A stretch of DNA of 53,998 nt from an uncultured Methylomarinum sp. (GTDB taxonomy: Bacteria; Pseudomonadota; Gammaproteobacteria; Methylococcales; Methylomonadaceae): positions 1 through 53,998 of the forward strand of contig CAYNRB010000001.1 of NCBI GenBank assembly GCA_964399475.1, read 5' to 3'. Positions 30,713-53,811 of the stretch are shown here, piece after piece. Each line of letters starts with the position of its first letter. Position 1 is the stretch's first letter. Under the pieces are notes generated by a model. It was not told the DNA's origin and made no database searches. It saw only the letters and a list, made by a program, of their open reading frames with translations. The position numbers were made by a program, and so were the translations under genes.

Positions 30713-30748
30713 AAATGTATAAGAAAACTCAAATAACAGGAAATTACA

Positions 30749-35718: not shown

Positions 35719-36426
35719 TCAATCAGATGAAAATTTGATAAATAATTTTTTAATTCTGATTTCATCAGAGGGTATTAATAAGCAACTTGAACTAATCACA
35801 CTTCCATTCAAGGTTACTTTTTTCTTTTTCACTGGACTAATATAAAACGAATGACCCACTTTATCAATTTCTGCAATATGAGCTGCAGTAAAAAAACCAC
35901 CTATCCGAATATCATTCTTTTTTGCCTTTCCAATAGAGTAGCTATCTTTAGTCAATAGCATTTTTTTTATTCCATTTAAATCACCTTTTACGATTAAATA
36001 GAAACTCTTCTGCTTGATATCTGAAGCAGCTTGAGATGTACCGGGTCCAGAAACTTTTGAAGATGACACCATAATTACAGTAGCATCACTCGACTCTTGT
36101 ACTGATACTGGAGCAGAACTATTTTGCTGTATCTGACTCCATTCCGAAATCTTTAAAATATGTTTACCAATAGTAACCGAATCTTCAAAACGAATTTTTT
36201 GACGTGTGCTTATCTTTTGGCTATTTAGAAATGTACCATTCGAACTATTCAAATCTTCAATGGTATATTGTCCGTTACTTACACTTATTACAGCATGAAA
36301 ACTTGAAACGCCCATATTATTGATAACAACTTCATTACTAGATGCTCTTCCAATACTAACAGTAACAGTTTTAATGGGTAAAGACTGCTTTAAGACGCCA
36401 TTAAAATAAATTTCAAGATAATTCAT
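35719..36426 (-). CDS. protein with two FHA domains
   Basis: 235 aa. FHA-1: SIGRASSNEVVINNMGVSSFHAVISVSNGQYTIEDLNSSNGTFLNSQKI. Ser-rich linker. FHA-2-like: YSIGKAKKNDIRIGGFFTAAHIAEIDKVGHSFYISPV..KVTLNGSVI. Confidence 0.8.
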   Translation of the reverse strand: MNYLEIYFNGVLKQSLPIKTVTVSIGRASSNEVVINNMGVSSFHAVISVSNGQYTIEDLNSSNGTFLNSQKISTRQKIRFEDSVTIGKHILKISEWSQIQQNSSAPVSVQESSDATVIMVSSSKVSGPGTSQAASDIKQKSFYLIVKGDLNGIKKMLLTKDSYSIGKAKKNDIRIGGFFTAAHIAEIDKVGHSFYISPVKKKKVTLNGSVISSSCLLIPSDEIRIKKLFIKFSSD

Positions 36427-38086: not shown

Positions 38087-41000
38087 TTACTTTACTTTAT
38101 TACTAGTAAACCAGGGAGTACCATCTTTTTTCAAATACATTTTATGCATTTCTTGTTGAGTAAAAGGTCTGGATCCAATTCTACCAAAAACTGCAATTTG
38201 ACCGCCTGTTTCATCTACTGCTCGATCTCTATCTAAACCTTTAGACAAGGCTAATGCAATATTTGAAGTTGGATACGAAGCTATTAGTTCAGGCTTAGGT
38301 TCTGGGCTAAAGCCATAAAACTTAGGCTGACTATCCGGTGATGTTAGTTGCAATACTTTCAATCCATTTTTACCATCAGCAACATAACCAATCAAAGAAG
38401 CATTAGTAGAAGCGACAATAACATCTCTTGCATCATTGAGTTGACCATTAGCTGTAAACAACTGTAGCAGCTTAGGACTTTCTGGTTTTTCAACATTTAT
38501 GATAGCTAAACCCTGCGAGCCTGCTGCCACATAAGCATAGGTTCTAGCAACATAAATTCGATTCGCATCCGTTAAAGCAACCGAGACACCACTGATTAAT
38601 TTTGCTTTTTCAGGCGTTGTTACATCAATAACTTTAAAACCATCTGCATCGGTTACAAATAGATATCTAAATTGTAAAGCTGTAGATTTAGCATTATTCA
38701 AGGGTATCACTGCCGCAACTTTTGGCGATAGCGGCGAATCCAAATTGATAATAATCAAACCGACATCCGCTGTAATATAGGCATAATAGCCACCTAGCGT
38801 TATATGTTTAGCTCCTTTTAGAATATTATCCCCATTCCATGTTAATGCACGTGTAAGAAAGTTATTTCTCGCTTTTCCGTCCGACAATGTATTTACATCG
38901 GTCAGAATTAAGCCTTCTTCTGCATCAACAATAAAGGCATAGTTATAGATTGGATGGAAATCCTGTTCCTGATTCGTCTCATTCATCAATTTACTCATCG
39001 CTTCGGCAGAAAGACCATAGTTACTTTCATAGCGGCGTTGTGGATGAATGGGTTGATTGGTAGGTAAAGCCATACAAGTCGCATTTTTAGAACTTATATG
39101 AGTATCATGTCCCAATGGTGAAAATGGCGCCGTTATAATTCGTTGAGAAATACCTTTATTGGCAATACTGGCAACATCATAGACTCTAAATCCACCTGAG
39201 CCTTCGGCAACATATAAATATTCTCCGCGTAGTTGTAAGCAGCTTGCTACATCAGAACTATGACTATGTACTCTTTTTAAGACTTGTTTATTATTTTGAT
39301 GATCCTTATACCAATCAGGGTAAGCATATTTATGTAAATAGCTACCTATCACGGCTTGAGGTTCTTCCCACTCAGTTACTTGAATAGCTGATATACCACT
39401 TTCTGTTCCCACATAGGCATTATATCCAACAAAGTTTACAAAATTGGTACCCTGTAATAACAGTTGAGCCATGATTGCATTATTATCATTTTCTGCAGAT
39501 AAATGACAATCTTCACATTGTTTGGTTTCTGTTTTACGCGTTGTATGTGGAAAATTGGGGGCGAATGCCTGTGCACTAAAACCACTCGATGAAACTGGAG
39601 GTTGCTGGATATAAATCAGTTCCCTGTTTGCATTTCTGGATGAAAGTATCAAGGCTGAAGATGAACGCACAGGAACTATTCTATTGCCCTTAACCTGTCC
39701 ATGACGACCAATTTGAAACATTTGGTCACGAACTACTTGTGGATTATAAGTTGCGTAATTACGCGCTTCTCCACCTTCATAATGAAGTGTGTCTGTTTTC
39801 CAGTTTGCCTGAATAGGTAAATGACAACCGGCACAACTGGTCACCCACGAACTATGACAAGTAAAGCAGGTCATATTTTCATTTTTATGAGCTCTATCTT
39901 CAGGAGCTACATCGGTTCCCCAAGCTAATGTCTCTGAATTTTTCGATACTAATTTTGCTCGAGCTGCTTTGGCATTATAGGTGGTATGAGCAGGATTAAC
40001 GGTATCTTTGACTAGACTCAGCTCCCATTCCTTATCACTAAATAAGGCAGAACGTTGATACAACTTATTGCCACGCCATTCAAATCGTAATTTACCATCC
40101 TGATTCCTTAATGTAGAAAGATCAGTACCACCAATTGCAGCAGCAGGGCCACTGGTTCTTAAATTTGGATAGGCATCAGCTGTACCATGACAATCTATGC
40201 AATCAACTTCTATTGCTGCTGCTACTTCACCATATAAATGACCATTGCCATGCGAATCTTGAGCAAAGTGACAATCTACACAGTGCATCCCTACGTCCAT
40301 GTGAATAGATGACAGATGAACAGCTTTATTGAATTTTTCTGGATCAGTATCACTGACTTCATTACCTGATGCATCTAATAAGGTACCTTTACGATCACGC
40401 TTAAAAACTGCTCTAAAATTCCAGCCATGTCCGTGATAGTCTGCAAATTGAGTGTCTTTAAGCTTAGGATTCAAATCGGAAACATTTTTGACAAATTCAA
40501 GGTCTTTCCATTTACCTCTTGCTGCTGCTTCCTCAGGATTCCTTTCATTGATTTTTCTGACTTCCGCATGACTCAAAATTTGCTCAGGATCTGGGTTTGC
40601 TCCTGCTCTTACTTGATCACTATTCAAATATCTTTGCTTTTCAGGCCACATATGCGGCGCATCCGATTCATAATCCCACATCGTATAACCCATGAAACTA
40701 TTTACAAAAATATTAGGTTGATGCATATGACAAATCATACATTGACTGGTCGGAATTGCTCTGGTGAATTGATGTTTAATAGGATGTCCCGACTCATTTT
40801 TAGAAATAGTCGGATCTATGGTCTGAGTTTTTCCTGAATGTCCAGCTTTGGCATAAGGACCAGAATGTTTTGGATCCCGATCATTTGCATAGACTACGTG
40901 ACAAGACCCACAACCTGATGTTCGATAATCTCCAGGTTGATCATTGGTCCCTAAAAACCATGTAAAAGGATCATTAAGACGAGTTTTGTGTATGTTAAGA

Positions 41001-41878
41001 ACGGGAACTGAAATTCGTCCACCGGTACCAGAACCTCGATTAGATTGCTTAATATCTGGACGACCCGGCTCTTCAAGTCGTTGAATCAAACCTAAGGCAT
41101 TAGGCAACCCAGTCTCAGGAAATAAATTAGTTATATTACGCCCACCTGCTTCAAAGACTCTGAAAACATCACCCTGTGGCATGTTTTCCCATCTTGGCAA
41201 CGGAATTAATGCAGGTACAATCCCTTTAGCGATCATATTTTCATCAGGTTCATGTGGATTAACCAACTTCTTGGGTAATCCTTCGCGCGTATATGATTCG
41301 CCCATAAAATAGCGTTTATATGGAACAATTCCATTATTGTATGCAGCTCCGCCCCACAACATAGCACCGGTAGCCATTAAACTTCTTTCAGATGCTTCAA
41401 TTATCTTCATATGGCATGCACCACATGACTCTCTTACAATCCGATAATCACTAGGATTAACAAAACGAATATATTCTGGTGATTCTCTATTCAAAAGGGT
41501 AAAACTATGCTTTGGATTCGCACTACTGGGATAATTCCACTCATTTGGTAAAGTAGGGATGACATGTGCTTTATTCATTGAAAGCTGGTATTCCAAATCT
41601 TTATCTGCACTGTTTTCCGGCTTAAACTCATCAGCGTTACCACCATGACAATCTACGCAACCCAAAGGCACTGCTTCAGTTTGATGCATAGATTGACTGT
41701 CTGTTTCGATATGACAACTCAAACAACCTCTAGACTTGGCATCAACTGCTTGCGGATCTTGGAATTGAGGTGCAATCAATGTTGAAGAATCTTTATCAAC
41801 ATCAAAAGCAGCATATCCGTTTATTGATACCAATAGGAATGCTATAAAAGAAAATATAATCAGCTTACATTTATTCAT
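38087..41878 (-). CDS. secreted decahaem c-type cytochrome fused to a C-terminal LVIVD-repeat beta-propeller
   Basis: 1263 aa with a signal peptide (IIFSFIAFLLVSINGYAA). Ten CxxCH motifs at aa 52, 74, 152, 323, 380, 533, 560, 671, 682 and 788. Residues ~880-1185 carry at least six LVIVD-like repeats (YLYVAEGSGGFRVYDV, YAFIVDAEEGLILTDV, YAYITADVGLIIINLDSP, YLFVTDADGFKVIDVTTP, YAYVAAGSQGLAIINVEKP, IGYVADGKNGLKVLQLTSP). Confidence 0.85.
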   Translation of the reverse strand: MNKCKLIIFSFIAFLLVSINGYAAFDVDKDSSTLIAPQFQDPQAVDAKSRGCLSCHIETDSQSMHQTEAVPLGCVDCHGGNADEFKPENSADKDLEYQLSMNKAHVIPTLPNEWNYPSSANPKHSFTLLNRESPEYIRFVNPSDYRIVRESCGACHMKIIEASERSLMATGAMLWGGAAYNNGIVPYKRYFMGESYTREGLPKKLVNPHEPDENMIAKGIVPALIPLPRWENMPQGDVFRVFEAGGRNITNLFPETGLPNALGLIQRLEEPGRPDIKQSNRGSGTGGRISVPVLNIHKTRLNDPFTWFLGTNDQPGDYRTSGCGSCHVVYANDRDPKHSGPYAKAGHSGKTQTIDPTISKNESGHPIKHQFTRAIPTSQCMICHMHQPNIFVNSFMGYTMWDYESDAPHMWPEKQRYLNSDQVRAGANPDPEQILSHAEVRKINERNPEEAAARGKWKDLEFVKNVSDLNPKLKDTQFADYHGHGWNFRAVFKRDRKGTLLDASGNEVSDTDPEKFNKAVHLSSIHMDVGMHCVDCHFAQDSHGNGHLYGEVAAAIEVDCIDCHGTADAYPNLRTSGPAAAIGGTDLSTLRNQDGKLRFEWRGNKLYQRSALFSDKEWELSLVKDTVNPAHTTYNAKAARAKLVSKNSETLAWGTDVAPEDRAHKNENMTCFTCHSSWVTSCAGCHLPIQANWKTDTLHYEGGEARNYATYNPQVVRDQMFQIGRHGQVKGNRIVPVRSSSALILSSRNANRELIYIQQPPVSSSGFSAQAFAPNFPHTTRKTETKQCEDCHLSAENDNNAIMAQLLLQGTNFVNFVGYNAYVGTESGISAIQVTEWEEPQAVIGSYLHKYAYPDWYKDHQNNKQVLKRVHSHSSDVASCLQLRGEYLYVAEGSGGFRVYDVASIANKGISQRIITAPFSPLGHDTHISSKNATCMALPTNQPIHPQRRYESNYGLSAEAMSKLMNETNQEQDFHPIYNYAFIVDAEEGLILTDVNTLSDGKARNNFLTRALTWNGDNILKGAKHITLGGYYAYITADVGLIIINLDSPLSPKVAAVIPLNNAKSTALQFRYLFVTDADGFKVIDVTTPEKAKLISGVSVALTDANRIYVARTYAYVAAGSQGLAIINVEKPESPKLLQLFTANGQLNDARDVIVASTNASLIGYVADGKNGLKVLQLTSPDSQPKFYGFSPEPKPELIASYPTSNIALALSKGLDRDRAVDETGGQIAVFGRIGSRPFTQQEMHKMYLKKDGTPWFTSNKVK

Positions 41879-41929
41879 GATAGTTGTACGAATGAATTAG
41901 AAAAAGTCAACATTACAATTTACCTAGAT

Positions 41930-43768
41930 TTAGTATGTGAGTATTAAATTACCCAAAACAGAATATAGTGTTTTATTACCATATAAATCTTTTAGGGCAT
42001 CTCCAGGGACTAAAGCCGCACCTGATAGTCGAAAAACAATATTCTGACTAAACTTAGGCCTATATATAGCAGAAACAGATAAGTCCCAGCCTATATCCGA
42101 GCTGATGCTGCCCTGATTCCTGGCAACTTCAAGCACATTTGTCTCATCAAAATAGAGTTTGTTAAAGTTTGTTGAAAGTCGAAATTCGGGTAAAATATCC
42201 ATATCGGTTCCAAGACCTATTAACACTATCCCCGGATTGGTAAAGTTTGACTGACCTTGATCTTTTGAAGATTCTAGTGAATTTAATATGCCATTTCTAC
42301 CAGATAGGGCAACACCTCCACCTCCTATAAAAGGCACGGCTTGCCTGATCCAAAAGCTACTATCAGCTCCAGCAAACTGAGGGTTTTCAACTATCGCATC
42401 ATAACCATTTGACTTGTTATCAAAGGCATCATCATCACCTGACGCATATAATCCAGACAACCTGACCCGTATCCAATCAAAATCCATGGACAGTTCACCG
42501 GCAAAAAAGTAAGCATCTATTTCACTTTCATCTACATTATATAAACCAGTCGTTTCATCTCCAAATAGATAATATCCAGATACAGTCAGATTGACCCGCC
42601 CAAAATGACCATCTCCATTAAAGCCCGCGTAATAGGCATCATAATCTCGGCCGATTTCATTTCCAATTGAAGCAGGTCTGACTAAAAATCCATTATCGTC
42701 GAAGAAACTATTATTTGCTTCTCTATTTCGGTTATAAGCAAAAGTTAGTTGAGACGTAAATCCACGTACCGGAAAATCTTGACGAAAAATATTTCCAAAG
42801 AAAACTTGATCATCTCGCAAGTCTTCAGAAATATCATTTAAACCGCTATTGGTATCTTTTTCGTGTCGCCAGATTGCAGCTAAATTGTATTGCCATAAAT
42901 TGTTATCCCATGTACCAAACAATCGAGCACCTAATTGTATATCCTGGAACAGGAAGCCTCTGAAATCTAAGGAAAAAGGCTGAATACCCACTCTGATACT
43001 ATTAAAATCATACCGATCAGAACTATTGTTTATATGATAATCTACAAATAGTTCTTGTATCGCAATATGACCATCTTCACGATCAGTACCTTCGCGCGGA
43101 TCTATATTCAAAAAACGCCGCTCCTCCACATCTGTGTAGTTATAATTAAACACAGGTGTAATACGAAATTCAAAATCTGGTGGTCTAAAAACTGTGTCAC
43201 CTTTGAAAAACACAAAAGCAACAATTAAATTTTGATTAAATAAGTACTGATCCTGAGAACCAAATACATCTATATCACCAGCGCTTGCAGTGGTTTGATT
43301 ACCATTTGGCGTAGGTATAAGCCTGTATTCACCAATCGTATCTGATATTACTGATACATTAGCAAACCAGTCATCAAAAATAGGTCTGTCACTTTTAATC
43401 AAATTCCGGTTATAGGGATCCAGAAAGCCTTCTTTTATGCCAATTGCATCCGCAATTCTCCAGCGATCAGGAACCGGTATAAATGTTTCAGGATAAAGAC
43501 CTTTTAATGCAGGAATCCGTTGAAGTCCACTTTTTCTGTTTGGGTCGGCAAGTTCAACGACTTCTGCTTCACTAACTGCAGTTGCACCAGGTCTGATACG
43601 CCTTCTTTCTCCACTCCCTTCATTTGAAGCATTCTCAGAAACGATATCTTGTTCAGCCACTACTGCAATTCCAGCATTTACAGTTGGTAAATAACACCAG
43701 CTGCTAGCTAATAATGTCAAGGCGACAGAACCTATAAAAGGTTTTTTATTATTTTCCACTGCATGCAT
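41930..43768 (-). CDS. putative large outer-membrane beta-barrel protein
   Basis: 612 aa. Signal peptide (SVALTLLASSWCYLPTVNA), pervasive alternating aromatic/polar beta-strand patterning, and a C-terminal ...LGNLILTY aromatic terminus typical of BAM substrates. Its start overlaps the upstream gene by 20 nt. Confidence 0.6.
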   Translation of the reverse strand: MHAVENNKKPFIGSVALTLLASSWCYLPTVNAGIAVVAEQDIVSENASNEGSGERRRIRPGATAVSEAEVVELADPNRKSGLQRIPALKGLYPETFIPVPDRWRIADAIGIKEGFLDPYNRNLIKSDRPIFDDWFANVSVISDTIGEYRLIPTPNGNQTTASAGDIDVFGSQDQYLFNQNLIVAFVFFKGDTVFRPPDFEFRITPVFNYNYTDVEERRFLNIDPREGTDREDGHIAIQELFVDYHINNSSDRYDFNSIRVGIQPFSLDFRGFLFQDIQLGARLFGTWDNNLWQYNLAAIWRHEKDTNSGLNDISEDLRDDQVFFGNIFRQDFPVRGFTSQLTFAYNRNREANNSFFDDNGFLVRPASIGNEIGRDYDAYYAGFNGDGHFGRVNLTVSGYYLFGDETTGLYNVDESEIDAYFFAGELSMDFDWIRVRLSGLYASGDDDAFDNKSNGYDAIVENPQFAGADSSFWIRQAVPFIGGGGVALSGRNGILNSLESSKDQGQSNFTNPGIVLIGLGTDMDILPEFRLSTNFNKLYFDETNVLEVARNQGSISSDIGWDLSVSAIYRPKFSQNIVFRLSGAALVPGDALKDLYGNKTLYSVLGNLILTY

Positions 43769-45740
43769 TTTGTTTACCTGAATTTAAAAATGGCTTATAA
43801 GGACATTGAACATAACGTAATCTAACACCAGCGAGTACTAAATTATCTGCGCGAATTTCAGGAGGTGCATTATTTACAGTATTAATTAGCTTACCTGCAT
43901 TATGCACGCCTAAAAAGGAAATCAAATCATCCTGATCAATACCATCACCTGAAACACCCAAGCCACCGATTAAGGTATTACCACGATAGACTGGAACGCT
44001 TCCTGGGAAAATCTGTATTCCATTTCTTAACTCTGGTATGGGCTGACCTACAGTAAAGTTCTGAATTCCCAAAAAGTTAGCAATAAAGTTTAATGTAGCG
44101 GGAGGGGAAGCTGTACAATCTTGTCCGATATCGGGAGCTAAGCCATAAAATGCAGCGACATGAGTCAACATACCATTAATAACCAGATCTAATTGTAATC
44201 CAGTTGAAAAAGGGCTCCATTCTGGAAAAGGCTTGCTAAAAGGGCCATTTTGAGCCCGTTGAAGACCATCAGGGAAAAACGGTCGAGATAAATTTCCACC
44301 GGCTCTATCTGTGAATGCAACTGCACCGGTCAAAACATTAGGATCATTGAATAAAGTAATTGTAGCATCGACATAACTGCTAATGGGAAAGCCAATTGCT
44401 TGACCTGGAAAACTAACATAAACAGCATCAGAAGCTGAATTCAATTTGTCTTGAGCGTCGCTCTTTGAAAAAAACATTGCTGTTCGTGCCTTTTGTAAGG
44501 ACACATCGGTACCAAATATTGGAGCATCTCGAGTTCGAACAACCCCTAGAATATCACCTTGGGTATCCACCAACGAAACTGTAACGCGAGCTTGAGAGTT
44601 AAAGGGTTGACGAATCTGCGCCCTGGCACTATTTGCAACTGCTATTGCACTGCGTAATAAAGCTAAGGATTCATCTCGGCTTATTCCTACACCCGCACGA
44701 ACAGGAAATCTTTCTTGGTTTGCATTATCAACTAGTACGAAAGCATCCAATCCAGCATAATCATTAGATGCCGGCCTTATTCCAGAATTTACCTCACCAA
44801 AAGCAGTACCTGCCAAAACCTGACCATCAAAATAGACAGGAACAGGGATAAGTAAACCTTTACCTGCTATTTGGGATAAATCCGAAAGTACATTAGAAAC
44901 CGTTTGAGTTTTTAAGTTTTTATATCGAATATCAGAATATCGTAGAGACTTACCTTCAACAGTAATACGATCAGCCCGATTTTTTCTGGAAGATTCAAAT
45001 CCTAAGGTTCCAGCAAGTGCAACCCGTTCATCAATAATATTATCCCGATCTCTAATATTAAGATCAGCACCATAAATTAAATCAGTCTCAACGCCAATCC
45101 CCCCAACTAAAGCTCCGTCTTTGTATAATGGAAAGCCACCAGGATCAGCAGAAAGCCCTAATGGAGAACGTTTAGGTCCAACATCTGCACCCGATGAAAA
45201 TCGCGTAACTAAATCTGAACAAGCAAGTGAACTAAATTGCACACCAAACAGTGGCCCTGCTGGTTGATTAAATTCCTGAGGGTTAAAATTCTGCATAATG
45301 ATATGACTTGCAGTACGCGTAGAAAACGCATTGCCTTCTGAAGAAAGATAGGCACCGGTAATTGCTTTGGCAATAGCTGATAGACTAGCTGGAATAACCC
45401 CTTTTATCCCATCCAAACCGGTCATAACGTTTCTTCCACCGTTTATCTCGATTCTTGGAAAAAAAGCATTATTTGGAAAAGGACCATTCATTTGATAAAC
45501 AGCCAATACATTTCCAACTCTATCAGTTACTGAAATTGTAGAGAATACACCCGCTATTTCAGACTCTTGTACAGCCTGAACAATAATCCGTCTAACATCA
45601 CTTTCTGTTAAGAAACTATTCGCTGTTGAGCAAAAGCCTGTACAACCATCCTTCGCAGAAATCTGAGGTGAAAATGATAAACAATTTGCTAGAAACACAA
45701 AACTTGCTATTAATTTTAGATTATATCTTTTCTTTTTCAT
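43749..45740 (-). CDS. secreted protein with two GlcG/HbpS-like (DUF336, haem-binding) domains
   Basis: 663 aa with a signal peptide. Two copies of the GlcG pattern: (1) VRRIIVQAVQES...ISVTDRVGNVLAVYQMNG ... AKAITGAY ... GGFPLYKDGALVGGIGVE; (2) LLRSAIAVANSA...TVSLVDTQGDILGVVRTRDA...SLQKARTAMFF ... FPGSVPVYRGNTLIGGLGVSGDGIDQDD. Confidence 0.6.
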   Translation of the reverse strand: MKKKRYNLKLIASFVFLANCLSFSPQISAKDGCTGFCSTANSFLTESDVRRIIVQAVQESEIAGVFSTISVTDRVGNVLAVYQMNGPFPNNAFFPRIEINGGRNVMTGLDGIKGVIPASLSAIAKAITGAYLSSEGNAFSTRTASHIIMQNFNPQEFNQPAGPLFGVQFSSLACSDLVTRFSSGADVGPKRSPLGLSADPGGFPLYKDGALVGGIGVETDLIYGADLNIRDRDNIIDERVALAGTLGFESSRKNRADRITVEGKSLRYSDIRYKNLKTQTVSNVLSDLSQIAGKGLLIPVPVYFDGQVLAGTAFGEVNSGIRPASNDYAGLDAFVLVDNANQERFPVRAGVGISRDESLALLRSAIAVANSARAQIRQPFNSQARVTVSLVDTQGDILGVVRTRDAPIFGTDVSLQKARTAMFFSKSDAQDKLNSASDAVYVSFPGQAIGFPISSYVDATITLFNDPNVLTGAVAFTDRAGGNLSRPFFPDGLQRAQNGPFSKPFPEWSPFSTGLQLDLVINGMLTHVAAFYGLAPDIGQDCTASPPATLNFIANFLGIQNFTVGQPIPELRNGIQIFPGSVPVYRGNTLIGGLGVSGDGIDQDDLISFLGVHNAGKLINTVNNAPPEIRADNLVLAGVRLRYVQCPYKPFLNSGKQNACSGK

Positions 45741-45829
45741 ACTTAGTCCAGCTATACAAGTAGTAAGATTGATTTTATTTTCCCTAGCGAATCCAAACTA
45801 TGAAGCCAACAATTTTGACATATTGATTA

Positions 45830-46375
45830 TTATTTTACTAAACCAAGATTCACAATTTTTACCCGTCTGTTTTTTGAGGAACCAGGATGTTTAGGGTCTA
45901 TTAACTCTGTCTCGCCTTTACCAACAACAACCATGCGTTCAACTGCAACACCATAATTATTGGTCAGATAATTACTAACAGAATCTGCACGTTGCTTTGA
46001 TAGATTATCGTTATATCCAGACTCTCCTAAGGCATCAGTATGTCCTTCAATTCTAAATTTATAAGACTGTAGTTGGGAGCCTTTAAGTGCGGTTCCAAGA
46101 GAATCTAGAGTTGTTTTGGTTCGCTCAGTTAAATCCGCAGAATCAAAATCAAATGTCAATGATAAATTTACTGCGACAGGCTTAGGATTAGTCTTTTTAA
46201 CCTGCCCTATACCTCGCGTTTTAATCCCTACACGAGGTACTAAAGCGTTGGTGAATTCTTCTTGAGTAGGAATTGCTGTTCCAAAATCAGTCACGCTTTC
46301 ATCAGCATAAACGAATCCATTGAAGCCAATTATTGACGAAATTGCTATTACTGAAACTGTCATATATATTTTCAT
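45830..46375 (-). CDS. OmpA-family peptidoglycan-associated protein
   Basis: 181 aa with a signal peptide. Motif: FDFDSADL...RIEGHTDALGESGYNDNLSKQRADSVSNYL...GKGETEL...NRRVKI. Confidence 0.8.
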   Translation of the reverse strand: MKIYMTVSVIAISSIIGFNGFVYADESVTDFGTAIPTQEEFTNALVPRVGIKTRGIGQVKKTNPKPVAVNLSLTFDFDSADLTERTKTTLDSLGTALKGSQLQSYKFRIEGHTDALGESGYNDNLSKQRADSVSNYLTNNYGVAVERMVVVGKGETELIDPKHPGSSKNRRVKIVNLGLVK

Positions 46376-46559
46376 TTGTCTATCCTCTCCTGTTTAAATA
46401 AACATTTAAAGTAATTAATACCATATTATTTTAGATTTGCACAATCATTTTTTAATAAAATGCATTAATTTTTAAATGATTTCGATTAAATCTTAGTATG
46501 ATTCCAACTAAAATTATAAGTAATTAATCTTTACAACTGATTTAATTTAATCACGCAAC

Positions 46560-46606
46560 TTAATTAAACATATTTTAATTATTTTAATTATTTTAATTAA
46601 ACATAC
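46560..46606. repeat. direct repeat TTAATTAAACATA (x2) flanking three tandem ATTTTAATT units
   Basis: Read directly at 46560-46572 and 46594-46606, with the 9-mers between them. Lies inside the 785-bp AT-rich divergent spacer. Confidence 0.7.
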
Positions 46607-47160
46607 TTTAATTATTTAATTAAGTCGTATATATCTTGGTGTTATTATTTAACTTAAGATGCTGTAAAATATATATATTTTATTTTTACCATTAAATATT
46701 CTATACTATATAGATCGTCAGATTTACTTTCAATTGAGTAGAATCAAGTACTCTTGTCCAAAAAGCGATATTATAAAACTCTATTAATATAATTGATTTC
46801 AAATATTTCCCCTTTTGACTTATTTAAAAAGCCGCATTGTCTACAGTAAAATTATTTATTAATGATTTTTAGTAAAAAATTTTTAGTTTCCAAATTTGAT
46901 AATGTTGAACTATGTCCTTGTACATAAGAAAATCTTTAATATATTAGTAATTAATAATATTGTATTGTTATAAAATTATTAAATCTAATAATTAATTCGC
47001 CTGGTAATTATTTTAGATTAATTTCATTAATAACTTGGCTTTATTTGAAAATAAATATATATTTAGACCATACATCTACCAGACTATACATAGTTACTTG
47101 TATTTGAATTTATGTTTATTCAATACATTTTGCTACTAAACCAGTTATTAGGGGAATAAA

Positions 47161-48504
47161 ATGGCTTCAACAGTTAATTTGATTAAAGGCTGCATCTTTT
47201 TTTCATTTTTGTTTTTTCAAATAGCTATTTCTGAAGCAGCCAGTACAGCTATTCCCCAATTCGCAGACAACATCCATTTAGGTGTTGCAACATGTGCAGG
47301 GAGCGCATGTCATGGCTCTTCAGAACCCTTTGACACCTCCACCGTATTACAAAATGAATATCTCACTTGGCAACGCCACGACAAACACTCCAAAGCCTAT
47401 AAAGTTCTTTTCAATGATAGATCTAAAAGAATTGCTCGCAATTTAGGCCTAAAAGCAGCTCATACCGCGAAAATTTGCCTGGATTGCCATACTGATAATG
47501 TAGCTAAAGATAAACGTGGGCGCCGTTTTCAATTATCTGACGGTATTGGTTGTGAAGCTTGTCACGGTGGCGCTGAAAAATATTTAGGCCCACATGTCTC
47601 TGGATTAGCCACACATCAAGAAAATATCGACAATGGACTCTACCCTACTGAAAATCCAATCCAGAGAGCAAAACTTTGCCTTTCATGCCACTTAGGTACC
47701 AATAGCCAATTTGCAACCCATGACATTATGGGAGCGGGTCATCCACGAATTAACTTTGAATTGGATACCTATACTGCAACATCACCCGCCCACTATAAAG
47801 TCGACAAAGATTACCGAGAGAGAAAAGTAGTCTGGAGCCATGCTAGAACATGGGCTGTTGGTCAAGCAATGGCCGTTCAACAATATCTTAATCTTCTTAC
47901 CTCGCCAAAACGGCTAAAAAACGGCCTATTTCCAGAACTTGCTGTATTTGAATGTTATGCCTGCCATCAATCTATGAATGGTCAACGCTGGCAAAAACGT
48001 GAATCCAGTGACATAGGACCCGGAAATATTCGACTTCAGGAAAGCAATATTCTGATGATGAAACATATTGCTAAAGTTATTGACCCTAGCCTTGCCAGTT
48101 CTTTGCATACCAAAACTTTAAATCTTCATCAAGCCAGCACACAAAGCATCCCAAGCATTGTCAGTGCCGCAAAAGAACTAAAAGTATTGAATAGACAGCT
48201 AATTAATAAAATTGCCAGTACAAGTTTTTCTAGCGCAATTATTAACAAAGTACTTTCCAGCATCATCAATGATGGGATTAAAGGCAATTACTTTGATTAC
48301 GCAAGTGCCGAACAAAGTTTAATGGCAATTGAAGCATTAGCAACAACTTTAGCCAACGCCCGTGCGATTGATTTTTCAAGTTCCAGCCCTTTAGCTAAAA
48401 GCATTGATAAACTCTACGTGCTATTAGTAAATGATGATAATTTTTCTCCAAGCTCATTTGCTAGCGAATTAAAACAAATACAAACTAACCTTTCTATAAA
48501 ATAG
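47161..48504 (+). CDS. periplasmic multihaem (4x CxxCH + 1x CxxxxCH) c-type cytochrome with a non-haem helical C-terminal half
   Basis: 447 aa with a signal peptide (CIFFSFLFFQIAISEA). Motifs CAGSACH, CLDCH, CEACH, CLSCH and CYACH all lie in the first ~270 aa. AGGGG RBS. Confidence 0.8.
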   Translation: MASTVNLIKGCIFFSFLFFQIAISEAASTAIPQFADNIHLGVATCAGSACHGSSEPFDTSTVLQNEYLTWQRHDKHSKAYKVLFNDRSKRIARNLGLKAAHTAKICLDCHTDNVAKDKRGRRFQLSDGIGCEACHGGAEKYLGPHVSGLATHQENIDNGLYPTENPIQRAKLCLSCHLGTNSQFATHDIMGAGHPRINFELDTYTATSPAHYKVDKDYRERKVVWSHARTWAVGQAMAVQQYLNLLTSPKRLKNGLFPELAVFECYACHQSMNGQRWQKRESSDIGPGNIRLQESNILMMKHIAKVIDPSLASSLHTKTLNLHQASTQSIPSIVSAAKELKVLNRQLINKIASTSFSSAIINKVLSSIINDGIKGNYFDYASAEQSLMAIEALATTLANARAIDFSSSSPLAKSIDKLYVLLVNDDNFSPSSFASELKQIQTNLSIK

Positions 48505-48691
48505 GATACAAGCTTTCCTTTTAGCTGCTTGACACATTATTTATAAGGGATTTCCTTCAATTATCACGCATGCATTGTTCTGAATTTGAAATTGATTTTT
48601 GAACTCTAGATTTTATGTATAGGCGCAAGTTTTTCAAGTATGCTATTTCTTCTTTTCAAATAGTGTTTTTTTATTTTTCTGGATACAGATT

Positions 48692-51100
48692 ATGTCAGAT
48701 TCAAAACATTACAATATAGTTATCATTGGTTCTGGCCCCGGCGGAATGAGTGCTGCGGGTCGTGCTCAGGAAGCAGGTTTAAATTATATTTTACTTGAAG
48801 CCACAAGCCACCTATCCTATACCATTCACCTTTATCAAAAAGGTAAACACGTCATGGATGAACCGACTATTTTGCCTTTACGCAGTACCTTCGGGTTTAC
48901 AGCCGAATCTCGAGAGGAAATATTAGGTAAATGGGAAGATAAAATAAAATCCCTCAATGTTAATATTCAGTACGACTCCTATGTCGAAACAATTTCTGGT
49001 GAATCAGGAAATTTCACCATTAATATCAAAGGTGGGGAAGTAATAACTGCCGATAAAATTGTGCTTGGAATCGGGCTTCAAGGTAATCTTCGCAAAATGG
49101 GAGTAGAAGGTGAAGATTTACCTTTTGTACAATATCAACTGGATGACCCTGAAGAATATGAAGATGAAACGATTGTGGTTATTGGAGCGGGTGATGCAGC
49201 CATAGAAAATGCCATTGCTTTAGCAAAACAAAATAACGTTATTATCGTAAACCGAAAGAATGAGTTTGCACGAGCAAAAAAGGGCAATCTTAATGGCATT
49301 ACTAGAGCGATAGAAACCGAAACTTTAGAATGCTACTACAATTCAACCAGTGAATGCGTTAAAGCCCTTGATCAACCAGGTGAAAATGGAGAAAAAGGTG
49401 TTTTAGTTCTCAATACTGATGAGGGAACCACTGAAATACCTATACATCGAATCATTGCTCGCTTAGGTGCAATCCCTCCCAGACGATTTGTTGAAGCTTG
49501 TGGAATTGTTTTTCCTAGTAAGGATCCTGCGGCAGTTCCTGCTATCAGTGAAACCTATGAATCAAATGTTCCTGGCTTGCATATAGTCGGTGCTTTAGGC
49601 GGAAATCCTCTGATTAAAGCAGCCATGAACCAAGGCTATGAGGTCATTGAACACATTCAAGGCAACCCAATCGCACCAGCGGATGAGCCACTCTTAAAAG
49701 ACAAGTTTTCTAACCTTGATGCCAGCTTGTCGGTTAGCCAATTACTTGCCCAACTCTATAGCGCTTTACCATTCCTCCAATCATTAACTAAATTACAATT
49801 TAGAGAATTCATTTTAGACAGTGAGATAAGATTACCTCAACCAGGCGAGACCATATATGCAATCAATGATTTCAGTAACTCCTTCTATTCTATTATCACA
49901 GGTCAAGTCGATTTAATTTCTACCGCTGGAGAACGTGATCAGAAATCTACACTACAAAATGGTGATTTTTTTGGTGAATGGAGCTTAATATCGGGTCGCC
50001 GACGTTCTGATACCGCTATTGCCGGTAATAACTGCTTATTAATCGAAAGCGGTCGTAGAATGATGAAAAAACAAATCAGCTCGGATCCTTCCATAGCCGA
50101 TGCGATCAATAAAGTTTTCATCATGCGTGCAGTACAAACTCATCTTGCGCCTGGTGTTCCTCAAGCATTACTCAAAAAATACTTGAATCGAGCAGATATT
50201 GCTTATTTCAAACCCGGTGATTTCTTGCAGAAAGAAGGGGAATCTTGTAGTACCTTTCATATAATACGCTCTGGATCAGTTACGGTTTCACGCAAAGTAT
50301 CTGGCAAAGAAGTCTTAATTTCGTATATGCCTGTGGGTGAATTTCTGGGAGAAATGGCCATACTCAGTGGCAATGCTTGCATGACAACCGCTACGGCTAC
50401 TGTCGCAACTGAAACCATTAGTCTTGATGCCAGCATTTTTACCGAGATGATGAATGATGTTCCTCAAGTTGCACAACTAATTGAAAGCACTTTACAAGAA
50501 CGCCTTAGGGATTATGTACAACTACAAAATCATCCTGAACGAGGTGCAGCAATCTCATTTATGATGCAACAGGGCTTAGGTGAAGCAACCGATGTTCTGG
50601 TTATTGACGAATCATTATGCGTACAATGCGATAACTGCGAAAAAGCCTGTGCGGAAACCCACAACGGCACTTCTCGATTAGATCGTGAAGCTGGCCCCAC
50701 CTATGCCTCACTCCATATTCCAACATCTTGCCGACATTGTGAACAACCACACTGTATGAAAGATTGCCCTCCTGATGCCATTCATCGAGCAAATAATGGT
50801 GAAGTCTTTATTGACCAAAGTTGTATAGGATGTGGTAATTGCCAGCAGAACTGTCCCTACGGTGTCATACAAATGGCAAAATCCGGAACCAAAACCACCA
50901 ATCTTTTTCAATGGCTAGTACTTGGTAAAGGTTCGGCACCCGGAGAAAAAGCAACCCATTTTGATGCTGATGTTCAAAAGAAAGCGGTTAAATGTGATAT
51001 GTGTAAAGATTTACCCGGCGGACAAGCCTGCGTTAGAGCCTGTCCAACGGGTGCTGCAATTCGCATAAATCCTGAACAACTTATTGAATTAACCATATAA
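48692..51100 (+). CDS. cytoplasmic fusion oxidoreductase: FAD/NAD(P)-binding pyridine-nucleotide-disulfide-type domain + two cyclic-nucleotide-binding domains + four-cluster [4Fe-4S] ferredoxin domain
   Basis: 802 aa with no signal peptide. Rossmann motifs IVIIGSGPGGMSAAGRA and IVVIGAGDAAIENA. cNMP-like blocks FFGEWSLISGRRRSDTAIA and FLGEMAILSGNACMTTATA. Cys groups CVQCDNCEKAC, CRHCEQPHCMKDCP, CIGCGNCQQNCP and CDMC..x7..CVRACP (DmsB/NrfC-like spacing). Confidence 0.8.
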   Translation: MSDSKHYNIVIIGSGPGGMSAAGRAQEAGLNYILLEATSHLSYTIHLYQKGKHVMDEPTILPLRSTFGFTAESREEILGKWEDKIKSLNVNIQYDSYVETISGESGNFTINIKGGEVITADKIVLGIGLQGNLRKMGVEGEDLPFVQYQLDDPEEYEDETIVVIGAGDAAIENAIALAKQNNVIIVNRKNEFARAKKGNLNGITRAIETETLECYYNSTSECVKALDQPGENGEKGVLVLNTDEGTTEIPIHRIIARLGAIPPRRFVEACGIVFPSKDPAAVPAISETYESNVPGLHIVGALGGNPLIKAAMNQGYEVIEHIQGNPIAPADEPLLKDKFSNLDASLSVSQLLAQLYSALPFLQSLTKLQFREFILDSEIRLPQPGETIYAINDFSNSFYSIITGQVDLISTAGERDQKSTLQNGDFFGEWSLISGRRRSDTAIAGNNCLLIESGRRMMKKQISSDPSIADAINKVFIMRAVQTHLAPGVPQALLKKYLNRADIAYFKPGDFLQKEGESCSTFHIIRSGSVTVSRKVSGKEVLISYMPVGEFLGEMAILSGNACMTTATATVATETISLDASIFTEMMNDVPQVAQLIESTLQERLRDYVQLQNHPERGAAISFMMQQGLGEATDVLVIDESLCVQCDNCEKACAETHNGTSRLDREAGPTYASLHIPTSCRHCEQPHCMKDCPPDAIHRANNGEVFIDQSCIGCGNCQQNCPYGVIQMAKSGTKTTNLFQWLVLGKGSAPGEKATHFDADVQKKAVKCDMCKDLPGGQACVRACPTGAAIRINPEQLIELTI

Positions 51101-51120
51101 CAAATAAGGAAAATACTCTT

Positions 51121-52059
51121 ATGCAAGAATCATTTCTGAATTATGAACGTTTCCGTTACTTAAAGCTGGCTGTAGCTGTTTCATTGCTTTCCCTTATTCT
51201 GTATATATTTCATGATCCAGGTGTTGCACCGCCAAATGGAGGCACTTGGTTAGGCTACTTGTTAGGTAGTATTTCGGCGGGAATTATCTTTTTACTGCTT
51301 TGGTTTGGTATCAGAAAACGCCGATATTCCTCAACAGCTGGTACAGTAAAAGGCTGGTTATCTGCACATATATACCTTGGCATCGCATTAATTTTTGTTG
51401 GAACGCTTCATACTGGATTTCAATTTGGCTGGAATGTCCACACGCTAGCCTATACATTAATGATTCTAGTTATTCTAAGTGGATTCTATGGATTATATGT
51501 TTATATCCGTTATCCAACCATGCTTAATACCCATAGAAATGGAATAAATCGCTTGGAAATGCTTAAGGAAATTAATGAACTGGATGAACTGTCACTCTCC
51601 ATTGCCAATAACGAATTAAGTCCAAAAATTCATGAAGTTATCTTGCGTTCTATCGAAAAAACTCGAATAGGTACCTCTGTCTGGCAACAATTGACTGCAA
51701 TGGAATACGGCTCTGACCCCTTTGAAGGTGTTGAAAAAATGTTAGCAGATTATCAACAAGGTGTGCAAAGTGAAACCTTAATGCTGGACAGCAATCAGCA
51801 ATCAGGTAACTCAACTAACTCACAAGCTACCATGATGTATATCAGTAATGCCTTGAATGTGATTGACTCGGATCAGCTTGAATCCGTACGAAGATTACTG
51901 GAAGCCGTGGGAAGAAAAAAATCATTAGTCAAACAAGTTAGACGTGATATCCAGTTAAAAGCAACCATCCAGTTCTGGCTATATATTCATATTCCACTTT
52001 CACTAGCTTTATTTGCTGCATTAATCATCCATATATTTAGCGTTTTCTTTTATTGGTAA
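51121..52059 (+). CDS. integral membrane protein, candidate dihaem b-type transmembrane electron carrier
   Basis: 312 aa with about 5 TM helices and a ~150-aa soluble insert. TM3 reads H83-x13-H97 (HIYLGIALIFVGTLH) and TM5 reads H290-x13-H304 (HIPLSLALFAALIIH). Confidence 0.5.
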   Translation: MQESFLNYERFRYLKLAVAVSLLSLILYIFHDPGVAPPNGGTWLGYLLGSISAGIIFLLLWFGIRKRRYSSTAGTVKGWLSAHIYLGIALIFVGTLHTGFQFGWNVHTLAYTLMILVILSGFYGLYVYIRYPTMLNTHRNGINRLEMLKEINELDELSLSIANNELSPKIHEVILRSIEKTRIGTSVWQQLTAMEYGSDPFEGVEKMLADYQQGVQSETLMLDSNQQSGNSTNSQATMMYISNALNVIDSDQLESVRRLLEAVGRKKSLVKQVRRDIQLKATIQFWLYIHIPLSLALFAALIIHIFSVFFYW

Positions 52060-52065
52060 GCTATC

Positions 52066-53811
52066 ATGAAATGTCTTGTAAATTATATTACTCGCCGTAA
52101 AAACGGTAATATTAGTACTAAATCAAAAGAAGTTGATGCCAACAGCATTGGTATTGGACGTGCTACTGACCAGGAAATTTTCTTATCAGATCTTCGTATT
52201 GCTTATAAACATGCTGAAATAGTTCTGCTTGAAGGAAAATACTACATCAAATCCCTGGCTTTATCTGGCATTAGACTGAACAATGCCATTACTTCATCAG
52301 TTTTGTTGACACCAGGCGTTGTCGTACAAATAGGAAACTACGAACTTAAAGTTATTGAAAAACCGGGTTATGACCTCGTTGTGGAACTTGAACAAGTCAC
52401 CACAAGTGAAGTTCTAAATGACCAAATAAAATTAGAGTCAAAACTGGATTTAAATCAAACAAAATTAAACAAGCGCCTTCTATCCTGGATAGGTTTTGCT
52501 ACGATATTTGTACTGTTTTTTATTCTCCCTTTAAGTTCTTCATTATTTCAACCGATTAAAGACATTAGCTCTAAAATTCCGCTTATACCAACCGATGCGG
52601 CATGGAAATCAGGCTCCATGGCATCTGTACATCATTTTTTCAAAAATGACTGTCGCTCTTGCCATCAAGATGCATTTGTTCAAGTTAAAGATGAAGCCTG
52701 TACTAGTTGCCATAAAGATACCCACATACATGCCAACGATAACTTAATGGTCAATCAAAATTTAAATAATATCGCTTGTCAGGATTGCCATAAGGAACAC
52801 AATGGAACTGACGGGATGATTATGCCTTCATCCAATAATTTCTGTAGTGATTGCCATGCAGATTTAAAAGAAACATTAGCAGATAAAACTAAATTACTAG
52901 ATGCTAGTGATTTTGGCGATGACCATCCTGAGTTTAGAGCCTCTATCCCTTATTCTAAGTTTGGCAAAAAGAGATTTTCTCGTATATCTATGGATAATAC
53001 TGAGAAACTTAAAGAAAAAAATGCGGTGGTTTTTTCTCATAAAGCTCATTTACAACCTTATTTTCCAGCCAGATTTAAAGAATTGACTAAAAATGGTGCT
53101 GAAAAAATGGCATGTATGGACTGCCACGTTCCTGATAGTGGTGGGAAACGCATGATTCCCATCAATTTTGAAGACAACTGTGAGAGCTGTCATAAGCTGG
53201 AAATTGGCAAAAAACAAGCTCGTTTAAAATTACCACATGAGGCAACAACTGAAGTCTATTATTATATAGAACAGTATTATAAGTCACTTGCCCTTGATGG
53301 CGGCATAACCGATACTGAAACCCCAACAGGTTTGAGAACCAGACGACGAGCAGGCCAAGCCATTTCTTCTGAGGAAAGATTAGTTGCATTAAACTGGGCT
53401 TCAAAAAAATCTAAGCAAGTTGCTGAAGAAATTTTTAACTACACGCTTTGTAAAACCTGCCATATAGTAACCAGCTCTGAGAATGCAACACCTCCTTGGA
53501 ACATTTCAGCCGTTTACACACCAGACTTATGGTTTCCAAAAGCAAATTTCACCCATTCCAAACATACAACCATGGAATGCTTAGATTGTCATAATGTAGA
53601 GCAGTCTGAAGTAGGCGAAGATGTTTTGATGCCCAAAATCGCTGATTGCCGAAGTTGTCACGCTGGGGCTCATAATGATGAATTATTGGCTTCTGGATGT
53701 ATTGATTGCCATAGCTTTCATATTGGAAAAGAACTACTTGCTCCTCCTGCACCTACTATTGTAGAACTGAAAGCTACTGGTAATGAAGCTGAAGAAGTAA
53801 TAATAGAATAG
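52066..53811 (+). CDS. FHA domain - single TM - decahaem c-type cytochrome fusion protein
   Basis: 581 aa. N-terminal FHA-like block (IGIGRATDQEIFLSDLRIAYKHAEIVLLEGKYYIKSLALSGIRLNN). TM at aa 138-160 (LSWIGFATIFVLFFILPLSSSLF). Ten CxxCH motifs follow: CRSCH, CTSCH, CQDCH, CSDCH, CMDCH, CESCH, CKTCH, CLDCH, CRSCH, CIDCH. Confidence 0.85.
   Translation: MKCLVNYITRRKNGNISTKSKEVDANSIGIGRATDQEIFLSDLRIAYKHAEIVLLEGKYYIKSLALSGIRLNNAITSSVLLTPGVVVQIGNYELKVIEKPGYDLVVELEQVTTSEVLNDQIKLESKLDLNQTKLNKRLLSWIGFATIFVLFFILPLSSSLFQPIKDISSKIPLIPTDAAWKSGSMASVHHFFKNDCRSCHQDAFVQVKDEACTSCHKDTHIHANDNLMVNQNLNNIACQDCHKEHNGTDGMIMPSSNNFCSDCHADLKETLADKTKLLDASDFGDDHPEFRASIPYSKFGKKRFSRISMDNTEKLKEKNAVVFSHKAHLQPYFPARFKELTKNGAEKMACMDCHVPDSGGKRMIPINFEDNCESCHKLEIGKKQARLKLPHEATTEVYYYIEQYYKSLALDGGITDTETPTGLRTRRRAGQAISSEERLVALNWASKKSKQVAEEIFNYTLCKTCHIVTSSENATPPWNISAVYTPDLWFPKANFTHSKHTTMECLDCHNVEQSEVGEDVLMPKIADCRSCHAGAHNDELLASGCIDCHSFHIGKELLAPPAPTIVELKATGNEAEEVIIE

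Follow-up and report, generated by a model that had tools for sequence, protein, structure and literature searches.

A stretch of 53,998 nucleotides from an uncultured Methylomarinum sp. (contig CAYNRB010000001.1 of assembly GCA_964399475.1, referred to in its full length as the window) carries a cluster of seven genes, designated A, B, C, E, F, G and H (Table 1), which very probably encodes one envelope-spanning electron-transfer system. The seven genes are one co-inherited functional unit, and the cluster represents a hitherto undescribed form of multihaem redox system spanning the envelope. With regard to its function, we consider the chances evenly balanced that it comprises a periplasmic ten-haem enzyme, the product of gene A, together with a dedicated substrate channel and an outward flow of electrons. 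What sets the cluster apart is how widespread and conserved it is: when one genome per species was scanned, gene A was confirmed in at least 599 species-representative genomes, and this central protein is annotated as 'hypothetical'. An initial annotation, made from the sequence alone, had described eight genes around a 785-bp AT-rich spacer as a conduit leading from the cytoplasm to the cell surface, and all eight open reading frames (ORFs) as well as the spacer were present at the given positions. Its interpretation was upheld in part, namely for the unit and the compartments, and is probably mistaken as to a surface wire.

Eighty loci were retrieved from the species-representative scan and the eight window proteins were mapped onto them by tblastn. 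All seven genes were located within 10 kb in 31 of the 36 fully flanked loci, and B immediately preceded A in 70 of 71. Two main gene orders were observed, F-G-H-C-B-A-E and G-H-C-B-A-E-F, and on a contig of 4.6 Mb the seven genes formed a single co-directional operon in the former order. The two divergent operons of the window are a lineage-specific split of this normally single operon, and a lack of synteny in related genomes, which the initial annotation had named as grounds for its own rejection, was clearly not observed. The exception was gene D, encoding an OmpA-like protein of the peptidoglycan-binding type (Pfam OmpA, 86 bits), which was not syntenic in related loci and was rejected as a member of the unit. 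D adjoined the cluster only in the window and in an identical Logan contig, with one weak unrelated match in another locus (L025), and is probably co-transcribed with C-B-A in the window. Gene C was absent from two metagenome-assembled genomes (MAGs) that kept the other six genes, one of Methylobacter (L005) and one of Nevskia (L074), and seems to be dispensable in some lineages. Seven loci, mostly labelled Alphaproteobacteria or Rhodospirillaceae (L015, L016, L020, L021, L029, L031 and L081), featured an extra ORF of approximately 140-220 aa between H and C that had no Pfam match; a hydrophobic signal-like segment was present in the one such ORF that was read.

Carriers of the cluster were labelled as Alpha-, Beta- and Gammaproteobacteria and Acidobacteriota, along with single MAGs labelled Bacteroidia and Streptomyces, and included soil, freshwater and marine bacteria. 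The cluster is horizontally spread, and the focus of the initial annotation on methanotrophs is probably too narrow, as, judging from taxon names, we take most of the carriers to be aerobic heterotrophs of oxic habitats. Cultured carriers included Limnobacter alexandrii, Parahaliea maris, Nisaea acidiphila, Spectribacter, Sphingoaurantiacus and Fontimonas, and the function of the cluster is therefore directly testable.

Proteins A, H and E together contain 24 CxxCH motifs and one conserved Cx4CH motif, in agreement with the 25 c-haem sites predicted beforehand. The full set of motifs was retained in 80 of 80 orthologues of A, 55 of 55 of E and 54 of 56 of H, and this conservation is therefore not due to chance. 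Domain calls from Pfam and NCBIfam likewise agreed with the earlier assignment of four iron-sulfur (FeS) clusters, an FAD/NAD(P) domain and two cyclic nucleotide monophosphate (cNMP) domains in F, an FHA domain, transmembrane (TM) helix and decahaem domain in H, GlcG/HbpS-like domains in C and an LVIVD propeller in A.

In the F protein an FAD-NAD(P)H domain of the TrxR/YpdA-like type (Pyr_redox_3, 100.7 bits) is fused to two cNMP-binding domains (PF00027, 99 bits in two stretches and above the Pfam cut-off) and a HycB/NrfC-type domain for four [4Fe-4S] clusters, with Fer4_7, Fer4_9 and Fer4_11 above cut-off. The sixteen Cys of its four ferredoxin-type motifs (C643/646/649/653, C680/683/688/692, C711/714/717/721 and C768/771/780/784) were mostly conserved in at least 95% of 51 F sequences, with lower values for the remainder. 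PDB neighbours of F included HycB (E 2.6e-17), HDCR HycB3/4, YpdA/Bdr, a TrxR-type ferredoxin-NADP reductase and PKA-R. The flavin domain was nearest to YpdA/Bdr and the TrxR-type ferredoxin-NADP reductases, and a sequence check found it to lack the redox-active CxxC of thioredoxin reductase; the C-terminus was nearest to HycB and the HDCR wire subunits. In the first cNMP domain the phosphate-binding cassette FGE...R[ST] was largely conserved, and the second domain was degenerate.

The G protein comprises five TM helices, along with an insert of 150 residues on the cytoplasmic side. The two His-x13-His helices noted in the initial annotation are conserved, with H83/H97 on TM3 and H290/H304 on TM5 (each i/i+14); H83, H97 and also H107 were invariant, and H290 and H304 were present in 98% of 56 sequences. 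Such an arrangement, with 13 residues separating the His of each pair on two TM helices, is that expected of a dihaem cytochrome b. We read the N-terminus as cytoplasmic on the basis of the positive-inside rule, which would place H83 and H290 near the cytoplasmic face and H97 and H304 near the periplasmic face, and we interpret the four residues as two putative bis-His b-haem sites stacked across the inner membrane. Families of dihaem cytochromes b were also matched: among 32 orthologues of G, 28 weakly matched the prokaryotic cytochrome b561 family Ni_hydr_CYTB (best E 2.9e-7), seven DUF4405 and four Ferric_reduct. Sequence and profile searches of the PDB with G gave nothing relevant.

The H protein combines an FHA domain (31.4 bits against a cut-off of 20.7) and a single TM helix at residues 138-156 with a decahaem domain of the c3/c7 type, for which Cytochrome_C7, c3_2 and Paired_CXXCH were above cut-off. 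The sequence fits a cytoplasmic FHA-fold domain, an N-in anchor and a periplasmic haem domain. Besides the ten CxxCH motifs there were ten further invariant His, which suffice for bis-His ligation of all ten haems.

The 'pentahaem' label of the E protein holds insofar as its five sites are conserved in all 55 orthologues; it hinges, however, on a fifth motif that is non-standard (CAGSACH, a Cx4CH) beside four of the CxxCH type. E belongs to Cytochrome_C554 (PF13435, 48.9 bits against a cut-off of 20.8), and its family profile matched the structure of cytochrome c554 (1bvb, E 5.8e-7). E differs from c554 in having five motifs, not four, and an extra helical C-terminal domain, and it contains conserved additional His and Met ligands. 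We read E as a probable soluble periplasmic shuttle.

The A protein is secreted and consists of a ten-haem domain (approximately residues 25-870) followed by a C-terminal LVIVD beta-propeller (41.4 bits against a cut-off of 20.2, Pfam). More than 8000 database homologues were found, the top 120 of which were 65-83% identical over the full length and all annotated as 'hypothetical'. A search of a representative library clustered at 50% with the haem domain gave 584 representatives at E <= 1e-30, and the identity of full-length relatives in this library was never below 41%. Eighteen aligned family members had a mean column identity of 67% and shared the invariant motifs CHMHQPN, MWDYE[SA]DA and YHGHGWNFR. 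The A family appears from these comparisons to be tight and to have no characterised paralogue from which a function could be borrowed, and a sequence search of the PDB found no relative of solved structure, the sole match being ActA at chance level (E 0.71). The literature on a Tenderiales LVIVD protein was considered for a relative of A and set aside, as that protein has no haem link.

The initial annotation had placed A at the cell surface. This placement was not supported: the signal peptide of A is of the plain Sec type, a lipobox is missing from A as well as from its orthologues, and the orthologues in the 80 retrieved loci, which span four or more phyla, were 61-69% identical to the window protein regardless of phylum. 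Such identity suits a periplasmic enzyme better than an exposed surface protein. The missing lipobox, the long invariant motifs, the low haem density (10 haems in approximately 800 residues) and the propeller point in the same direction, and we favour a putative periplasmic terminal oxidoreductase rather than a surface wire. The propeller fusion recalls cd1 nitrite reductase or the quinohaemoprotein dehydrogenases.

The B protein had been described as a beta-barrel, and this was borne out by an AlphaFold2 model with 18 beta-strands and a predicted local distance difference test score (pLDDT) of 65 overall and approximately 71-89 in most of the barrel blocks. The best PDB fold was AlgE (E 3e-16, TMt 0.64; Foldseek), followed by the OprD/Occ family, a chitoporin and a sucrose porin, and an MtrB-like fold was absent among these structural matches. 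As B had no Pfam match, its likeness to AlgE and OprD is a resemblance of fold and not a family membership; the UniRef name of one B orthologue is 'Alginate export domain-containing protein'. The protein has an N-terminal extension of approximately 100 aa and ends in ...LILTY. Orthologues were 56-81% identical to the window protein and many Arg, Asp and Asn were invariant, a conservation that is unusual for a barrel and suggests a specific lined pore and tight protein contacts. One of the most conserved parts is a 70-residue loop between strands 13 and 14 (residues 443-513; consensus ...FENPIFAGADTSFWIRQAVPLIGGGGV...SNFTNPG), which could be a pore-lining or plug element; model confidence was low in this loop. 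MtrB has 26 strands, and a barrel of 18 would be too narrow to sheathe a multihaem protein. A porin-cytochrome wire through B in the style of the Mtr/Pcc systems is therefore unlikely on this model, and we read B as a probable dedicated substrate channel.

Gene C overlaps gene B by 20 nt and is translationally coupled to it. Its product matched the Pfam family HbpS-like (PF03928) in three stretches with 76 bits against a cut-off of 25, and its sequence matches in the PDB were EfgA, a putative extracellular haem-binding protein, NahX and a PduO-type adenosyltransferase. Many C orthologues are lipoproteins with a lipobox followed by a Gly-rich linker; a lipobox with a poly-Gly linker was seen in many of the copies from L002, L004, L014, L019, L022, L023, L025, L027, L028 and L030. 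A conserved CxGxC was located just ahead of the first HbpS-like domain in many orthologues. The window protein contains this motif (CTGFC) and only an atypical lipobox ('LANC'), and the alphaproteobacterial copies have neither.

These features suggest the compartments in which the system would operate. F is predicted to be cytoplasmic, G and H to be anchored in the inner membrane, the haems of H together with E, A and C to be periplasmic, and B to be in the outer membrane; signal peptides were read at the start of A, C, D and E and none at the start of F. For F, G, H, E and B these placements are those of the initial annotation and fit the sequence evidence. In the mechanism that we propose, NAD(P)H would be oxidised at the FAD of F and electrons would pass down its four [4Fe-4S] clusters, cross the inner membrane via the two stacked b-haems of G in the manner of the NADPH oxidase (NOX)/ferric-reductase and FdnI/cytochrome b561 proteins, and be led into the periplasm by the ten bis-His haems of H. 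The c554-like E would ferry electrons from H to A, which would act as the terminal oxidoreductase on a small solute admitted through the outer membrane by the 18-strand channel B. C, with its presumed ligand-binding HbpS/GlcG-like domains, would sit as a lipoprotein at this channel. Because NAD(P)H would be spent without conserving energy when quinones are bypassed, the flux would be expected to be gated, and candidate gates are the binding of a cyclic nucleotide to F and a pathway of Ser/Thr kinase, PP2C and FHA proteins described below. Candidate substrates for A, suggested by weak homologies, are chalcogen species (polysulfide, selenite and tellurite), nitrogen oxides and soluble metal species. 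By our own tally one complex would hold approximately 43 iron atoms, which together with the strong conservation implies an important function. The same iron cost led us to rank reductive iron uptake low, as it would presumably be self-defeating.

Several points weigh against a periplasmic enzyme with its own channel. The lifestyles of the carriers were taken from their taxon names. All ten haem motifs of A are plain CxxCH with no recognisable catalytic variant (CxxCK or Cx15CH). An AlphaFold2 model of the A haem domain (residues 25-870, 30-sequence alignment) reached a pLDDT of only 41 and yields no evidence of an active site; the alignment was too low in diversity, all of its rows being approximately 67% identical. 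G reached no Pfam cut-off, with 22.5 bits against 30.1 for PF01292. The Gly-Arg of the FHA domain of H is mostly kept, but the canonical phosphothreonine-binding Ser and Asn are not conserved in the orthologues, which makes a canonical phosphothreonine reader doubtful; the domain may instead be a docking module. The kinase, PP2C and FHA genes accompany only about one third of the loci. Finally, an 18-strand barrel could still allow electron exchange by way of a diffusing redox shuttle or metal ion, as in Cyc2.

No paper on a decahaem-LVIVD protein or on the seven-gene cluster was found in the literature searched. The initial annotation knew of no defined conduit with such an architecture, yet precedents exist in part, as by description a module of the E-F-G-H type is found in ptd and an H-G-F trio in Ferrigenium. 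The ptdABCDEFG operon, of unknown function, comes from ocean oxygen-deficient zones, is also widespread in Alpha- and Gammaproteobacteria, and encodes a porin, a periplasmic tetrahaem protein, a protein with cNMP and 4Fe-4S domains, a ferric-reductase-like membrane protein, a periplasmic decahaem protein and a separate FAD/NAD(P) oxidoreductase (bioRxiv 10.1101/2023.11.21.568154). Going by the published description, its logic and gene order match those of E-F-G-H, and E, F, G, H and B would have counterparts among four or five of its components. It differs in its head, PtdA, a pentahaem protein that has a beta-sandwich and is related to T. tepidum c552 and to the NrfA COG (bioRxiv 10.1101/2023.11.21.568154), in place of the 1260-aa decahaem-LVIVD protein A; no counterpart to A or C and no HbpS-like protein is listed, and FAD and FeS are on separate ptd proteins. 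E itself matched c552 (5ze8) with an E-value of 0.06-0.36 only.

The second module, termed 'NHC' and also of unknown function, is from Ferrigenium straubiae and consists of a protein in which a single TM helix accompanies an FHA domain and a multihaem domain on the periplasmic side, beside a five-TM protein and a cytoplasmic [4Fe-4S] protein (bioRxiv 10.64898/2026.01.22.701106). By description it resembles the H-G-F trio. It has nine haems in place of ten, lies in a neighbourhood with nirK and an SHP-like gene, and is without A, B, C and E. For its TM protein the authors reported no redox motif (bioRxiv 10.64898/2026.01.22.701106), whereas G contains four conserved His that mark two putative haem sites. 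Taken together, ptd, NHC and the present cluster may be variants of a single modular family of transmembrane electron wires fed by NAD(P)H, and the cluster links what were two separate recent observations, the ptd operon and the FHA-multihaem module of iron oxidisers.

The ext locus of Geobacter sulfurreducens offers a further parallel, having first been proposed as an outer-membrane conduit (PMC13510729). It includes the porin ExtI for selenite uptake, the lipoprotein ExtH, whose localisation is porin-dependent, and ExtKL, which is the periplasmic pentahaem polysulfide/selenite reductase MccSep (PMC13510729). As in the cluster, a lipoprotein, a porin, a periplasmic multihaem protein and membrane cytochrome b/FeS subunits are encoded in one operon, and a lipoprotein gene (C in many lineages) is paired with a barrel gene. 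Residues 523-792 of A are partially homologous to ExtM: the region matched NCBIfam NF040943 in each of the 18 family members compared, with a best E of 6e-21, and the 63 bits of A are far under the 800-bit equivalog cut-off. In a scan of the window proteins no Ext family matched B or G, and none was among the matches listed for H and F (25 for F). The cluster is without the selenocysteine and rhodanese of ext. The ext host is an anaerobe, and the electron input of ext is not an NAD(P)H flavoprotein, unlike F.

The main alternative to a periplasmic enzyme is a respiratory conduit for extracellular electron transfer (EET), in which electrons from NAD(P)H would cross both membranes to a surface-exposed A docked on B and from there reach ferrihydrite, Mn oxides, humics or electrodes. 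We regard it as unlikely. It would account for the coverage of every compartment and for the presence of 25 c-haems together with a barrel, and it is consistent with the typical occurrence of LVIVD and 'choice-of-anchor B' propellers in surface proteins, with the sub-threshold match of A to MtrC/MtrF domain II/IV (25.3 bits against a cut-off of 30), with the reading of the sibling ptd operon as likewise a possible porin-cytochrome complex, and with reports that methanotrophs reduce minerals and electrodes. Against these stand the size of the AlgE/OprD-like B, the lack of a lipid anchor on A and a conservation of A far above that usual for surface proteins. Furthermore, the chain from NAD(P)H bypasses quinones and would conserve no energy, the carriers are, going by their taxon names, mostly heterotrophs of oxic habitats, and the current-making Methylococcales have a different cluster of the MtrAB type. 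That cluster, from Methylobacter, and the c553o family of M. capsulatus were both considered as relatives and set aside as different systems.

Comparison with MtrCAB and the Pcc systems bears on the same question. The initial annotation had drawn an analogy to porin-cytochrome systems while seeing no resemblance to MtrA, MtrB or MtrC. The second part stands, and the analogy is unlikely to hold. Multihaem cytochromes are encoded beside a barrel in both cases and decahaem proteins are present in both; however, Mtr/Pcc barrels have 20-26 strands. H and E scored only 29 and 21.8 bits against the MtrA/DmsE model (TIGR03508, cut-off 192), A lacks the features of a surface lipoprotein of the MtrC/OmcA type, being below the MtrC domain cut-off and without a lipobox, and the cluster does not include the CymA/NapC-type quinol dehydrogenase of Mtr/Pcc. 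The cluster is not a member of the Mtr/Pcc group because the barrel type, the MtrA/DmsE decahaem and the MtrC-type lipoprotein are all lacking. This calls for caution in annotation, as metagenome surveys routinely count multihaem genes that adjoin a barrel as 'extracellular electron transfer', and B is the wrong type of barrel for that.

A broader proposition, to which we give a rather small chance, is that the cluster represents an unrecognised and globally distributed class of extracytoplasmic oxidoreductase. Such a system would export electrons in the manner of NOX under the control of second messengers and phosphorylation, spending cytoplasmic NAD(P)H through two b-haems and 25 c-haems on a ten-haem/propeller enzyme with its own outer-membrane channel. 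The reaction catalysed would so far have no enzyme assigned to it in bacteria of oxic habitats. Examples of such chemistry are chalcogen or metalloid reduction, the turnover of nitrogen-oxide intermediates and the regulated production of extracellular reactive oxygen species.

Electrons could also flow in the reverse direction, as in the Tmc and Hmc systems of Desulfovibrio, with A oxidising a low-potential donor that enters through B, and with E, H, G and F passing the electrons on to NAD(P)+; inward electrons would then add to the membrane potential. The parallel lies in a quinone-independent TM wire made of a periplasmic c3-type multihaem protein, a cytochrome b in the membrane and an FeS protein in the cytoplasm, as found in TmcABCD and Hmc, and H and A matched TmcA and HmcA, respectively, although weakly. 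In nitrifiers c554 accepts electrons from the oxidising enzyme HAO and E is c554-like, and haems that are all bis-His suit low potentials. We nevertheless judge this direction improbable. Reduction of NAD(P)+ requires a donor below about -320 mV, which would be scarce in the oxic habitats of the carriers, and Pfam and NCBIfam revealed no resemblance to a hydrogenase or to a formate, sulfite or phosphite dehydrogenase in the cluster. TrxR-type flavoenzymes fused to FeS wires usually run from NAD(P)H. In Tmc and Hmc the electrons move inward for sulfate reduction, and there is no NAD(P)H domain, barrel, cNMP domain or FHA domain.

A bacterial analogue of NOX was also considered, in which an NAD(P)H oxidase or reductase under second-messenger control would reduce O2 or another oxidant at its periplasmic end. 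The reactive species made or removed in this way would serve in signalling, in defence or in the redox cycling of metals, and not in respiration. The route from cytoplasmic NAD(P)H and flavin to two bis-His b-haems on TM helices with His-x13-His, and on to the outer face, follows the logic of NOX and the ferric reductases, and is shared with Fre-MsrQ-MsrP and FdnI/cytochrome b561. Control by cNMP and Ser/Thr phosphorylation echoes the regulation of eukaryotic NOX, the carriers are bacteria of oxic habitats, and part of the literature treats bacterial extracellular superoxide production as tightly regulated. The 25 c-haems, barrel and propeller would, however, be superfluous for O2 reduction, and the Roseobacters, the best-studied superoxide producers, were not evident among the 80 listed loci. 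We regard the analogue as very unlikely to be the correct explanation. The proteins themselves also differ, as G has five TM helices with the 150-residue insert and lies under all Pfam cut-offs, unlike the NOX and FdnI types, and the flavin domain of F is TrxR-like and not FNR-like and is wired via four FeS clusters on a protein separate from G. That the eight genes are unrelated neighbours with a coincidental pathway, as the passenger D, which is truly unrelated, and the split into two divergent operons in the window might suggest, is refuted by the synteny of seven of them in dozens of genomes from several phyla and in two gene orders, and has next to no probability.

Genes for a Ser/Thr kinase, a PP2C phosphatase and a double-FHA (2xFHA) protein are located past the 3' end of A at a distance of 1.7 kb (32970-36426; Table 1). 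They had been omitted from the locus as first drawn and recur beside the cluster. A PP2C gene was found beside the cluster in 19 other loci, in 18 of which it started within approximately 135 bp after E, and a 2xFHA gene was found in 15 loci, 14 of them adjoining the PP2C gene. A kinase gene was within a few kb of the cluster in eight loci. This recurrence suggests control by a threonine-phosphorylation pathway, and the triad is a probable set of regulators of the cluster. Cytochrome c maturation genes abutted the cluster upstream of G in ten loci with the order G-H-C-B-A-E-F (L023, L028, L030, L033, L035, L049, L054, L058, L061 and L073); ccmI/cycH was beside the cluster in ten loci of the Betaproteobacteria type, and ccmA together with ccmB in six.

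Table 1. Positions of the cluster genes, the divergent intergenic region and the adjacent regulatory genes in the window
Feature	Position	Strand	Description
Ser/Thr kinase	32970-34679	-	Pfam Pkinase 254 bits
PP2C phosphatase	34761-35561	+	PP2C_2 57 bits
Double-FHA protein	35719-36426	-	FHA 82.7 bits
A	38087-41878	-	1263 aa; decahaem + LVIVD
B	41930-43768	-	612 aa; outer-membrane barrel
C	43749-45740	-	663 aa; HbpS-like repeats
D	45830-46375	-	181 aa; OmpA-like
Divergent intergenic region	46376-47160	.	785 bp, AT-rich
E	47161-48504	+	447 aa; c554-like
F	48692-51100	+	802 aa; FAD/cNMP/FeS fusion
G	51121-52059	+	312 aa; membrane protein
H	52066-53811	+	581 aa; FHA-TM-decahaem

Gene spacing in the window fits two operons, with short gaps between B and A (51 nt), F and G (20 nt) and G and H (6 nt) in addition to the overlap of C and B. 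Both divergent promoters are presumably within the spacer, the GC content of which was 0.19 across 46500-46999; in a promoter scan, promoter-like matches in the spacer were not commoner than in shuffled sequence. An imperfect palindrome at 46560-46600 (TTAATTAAACATATTTTAAT / ATTTTAATTATTTTAATTAA, arms 1 nt apart) was accompanied by further AT-rich repeats in this spacer of 19% GC, and may be a regulator site or merely low-complexity sequence.

Other genes of the window included three flagellin genes at 3338-14697, two of which are giant and encode 858 aa (4698-7274) and 1363 aa (10606-14697), accompanied by FliD, FliS and a MotY-like gene. Flagellins of such length have large inserted central domains. 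The region 25282-32422 carries C1 and serine-cycle genes encoding malate dehydrogenase, an MtdA-like methylene-H4MPT dehydrogenase, a DUF4147/MOFRL protein, which we take to be glycerate kinase, SHMT and formate-THF ligase. Together with the Ffh comparison below, these genes identify the host as a member of the Methylococcaceae close to Methylomarinum. A tyrosine recombinase (22073-22960; Phage_integrase with an N-terminal SAM-like domain) is located between housekeeping and C1 genes and reads as XerC/XerD-like, probably a chromosomal dimer resolvase rather than a marker of a mobile element. The Ffh protein of the window was 90-92% identical to those of Methylococcaceae/Methylomarinum MAGs.

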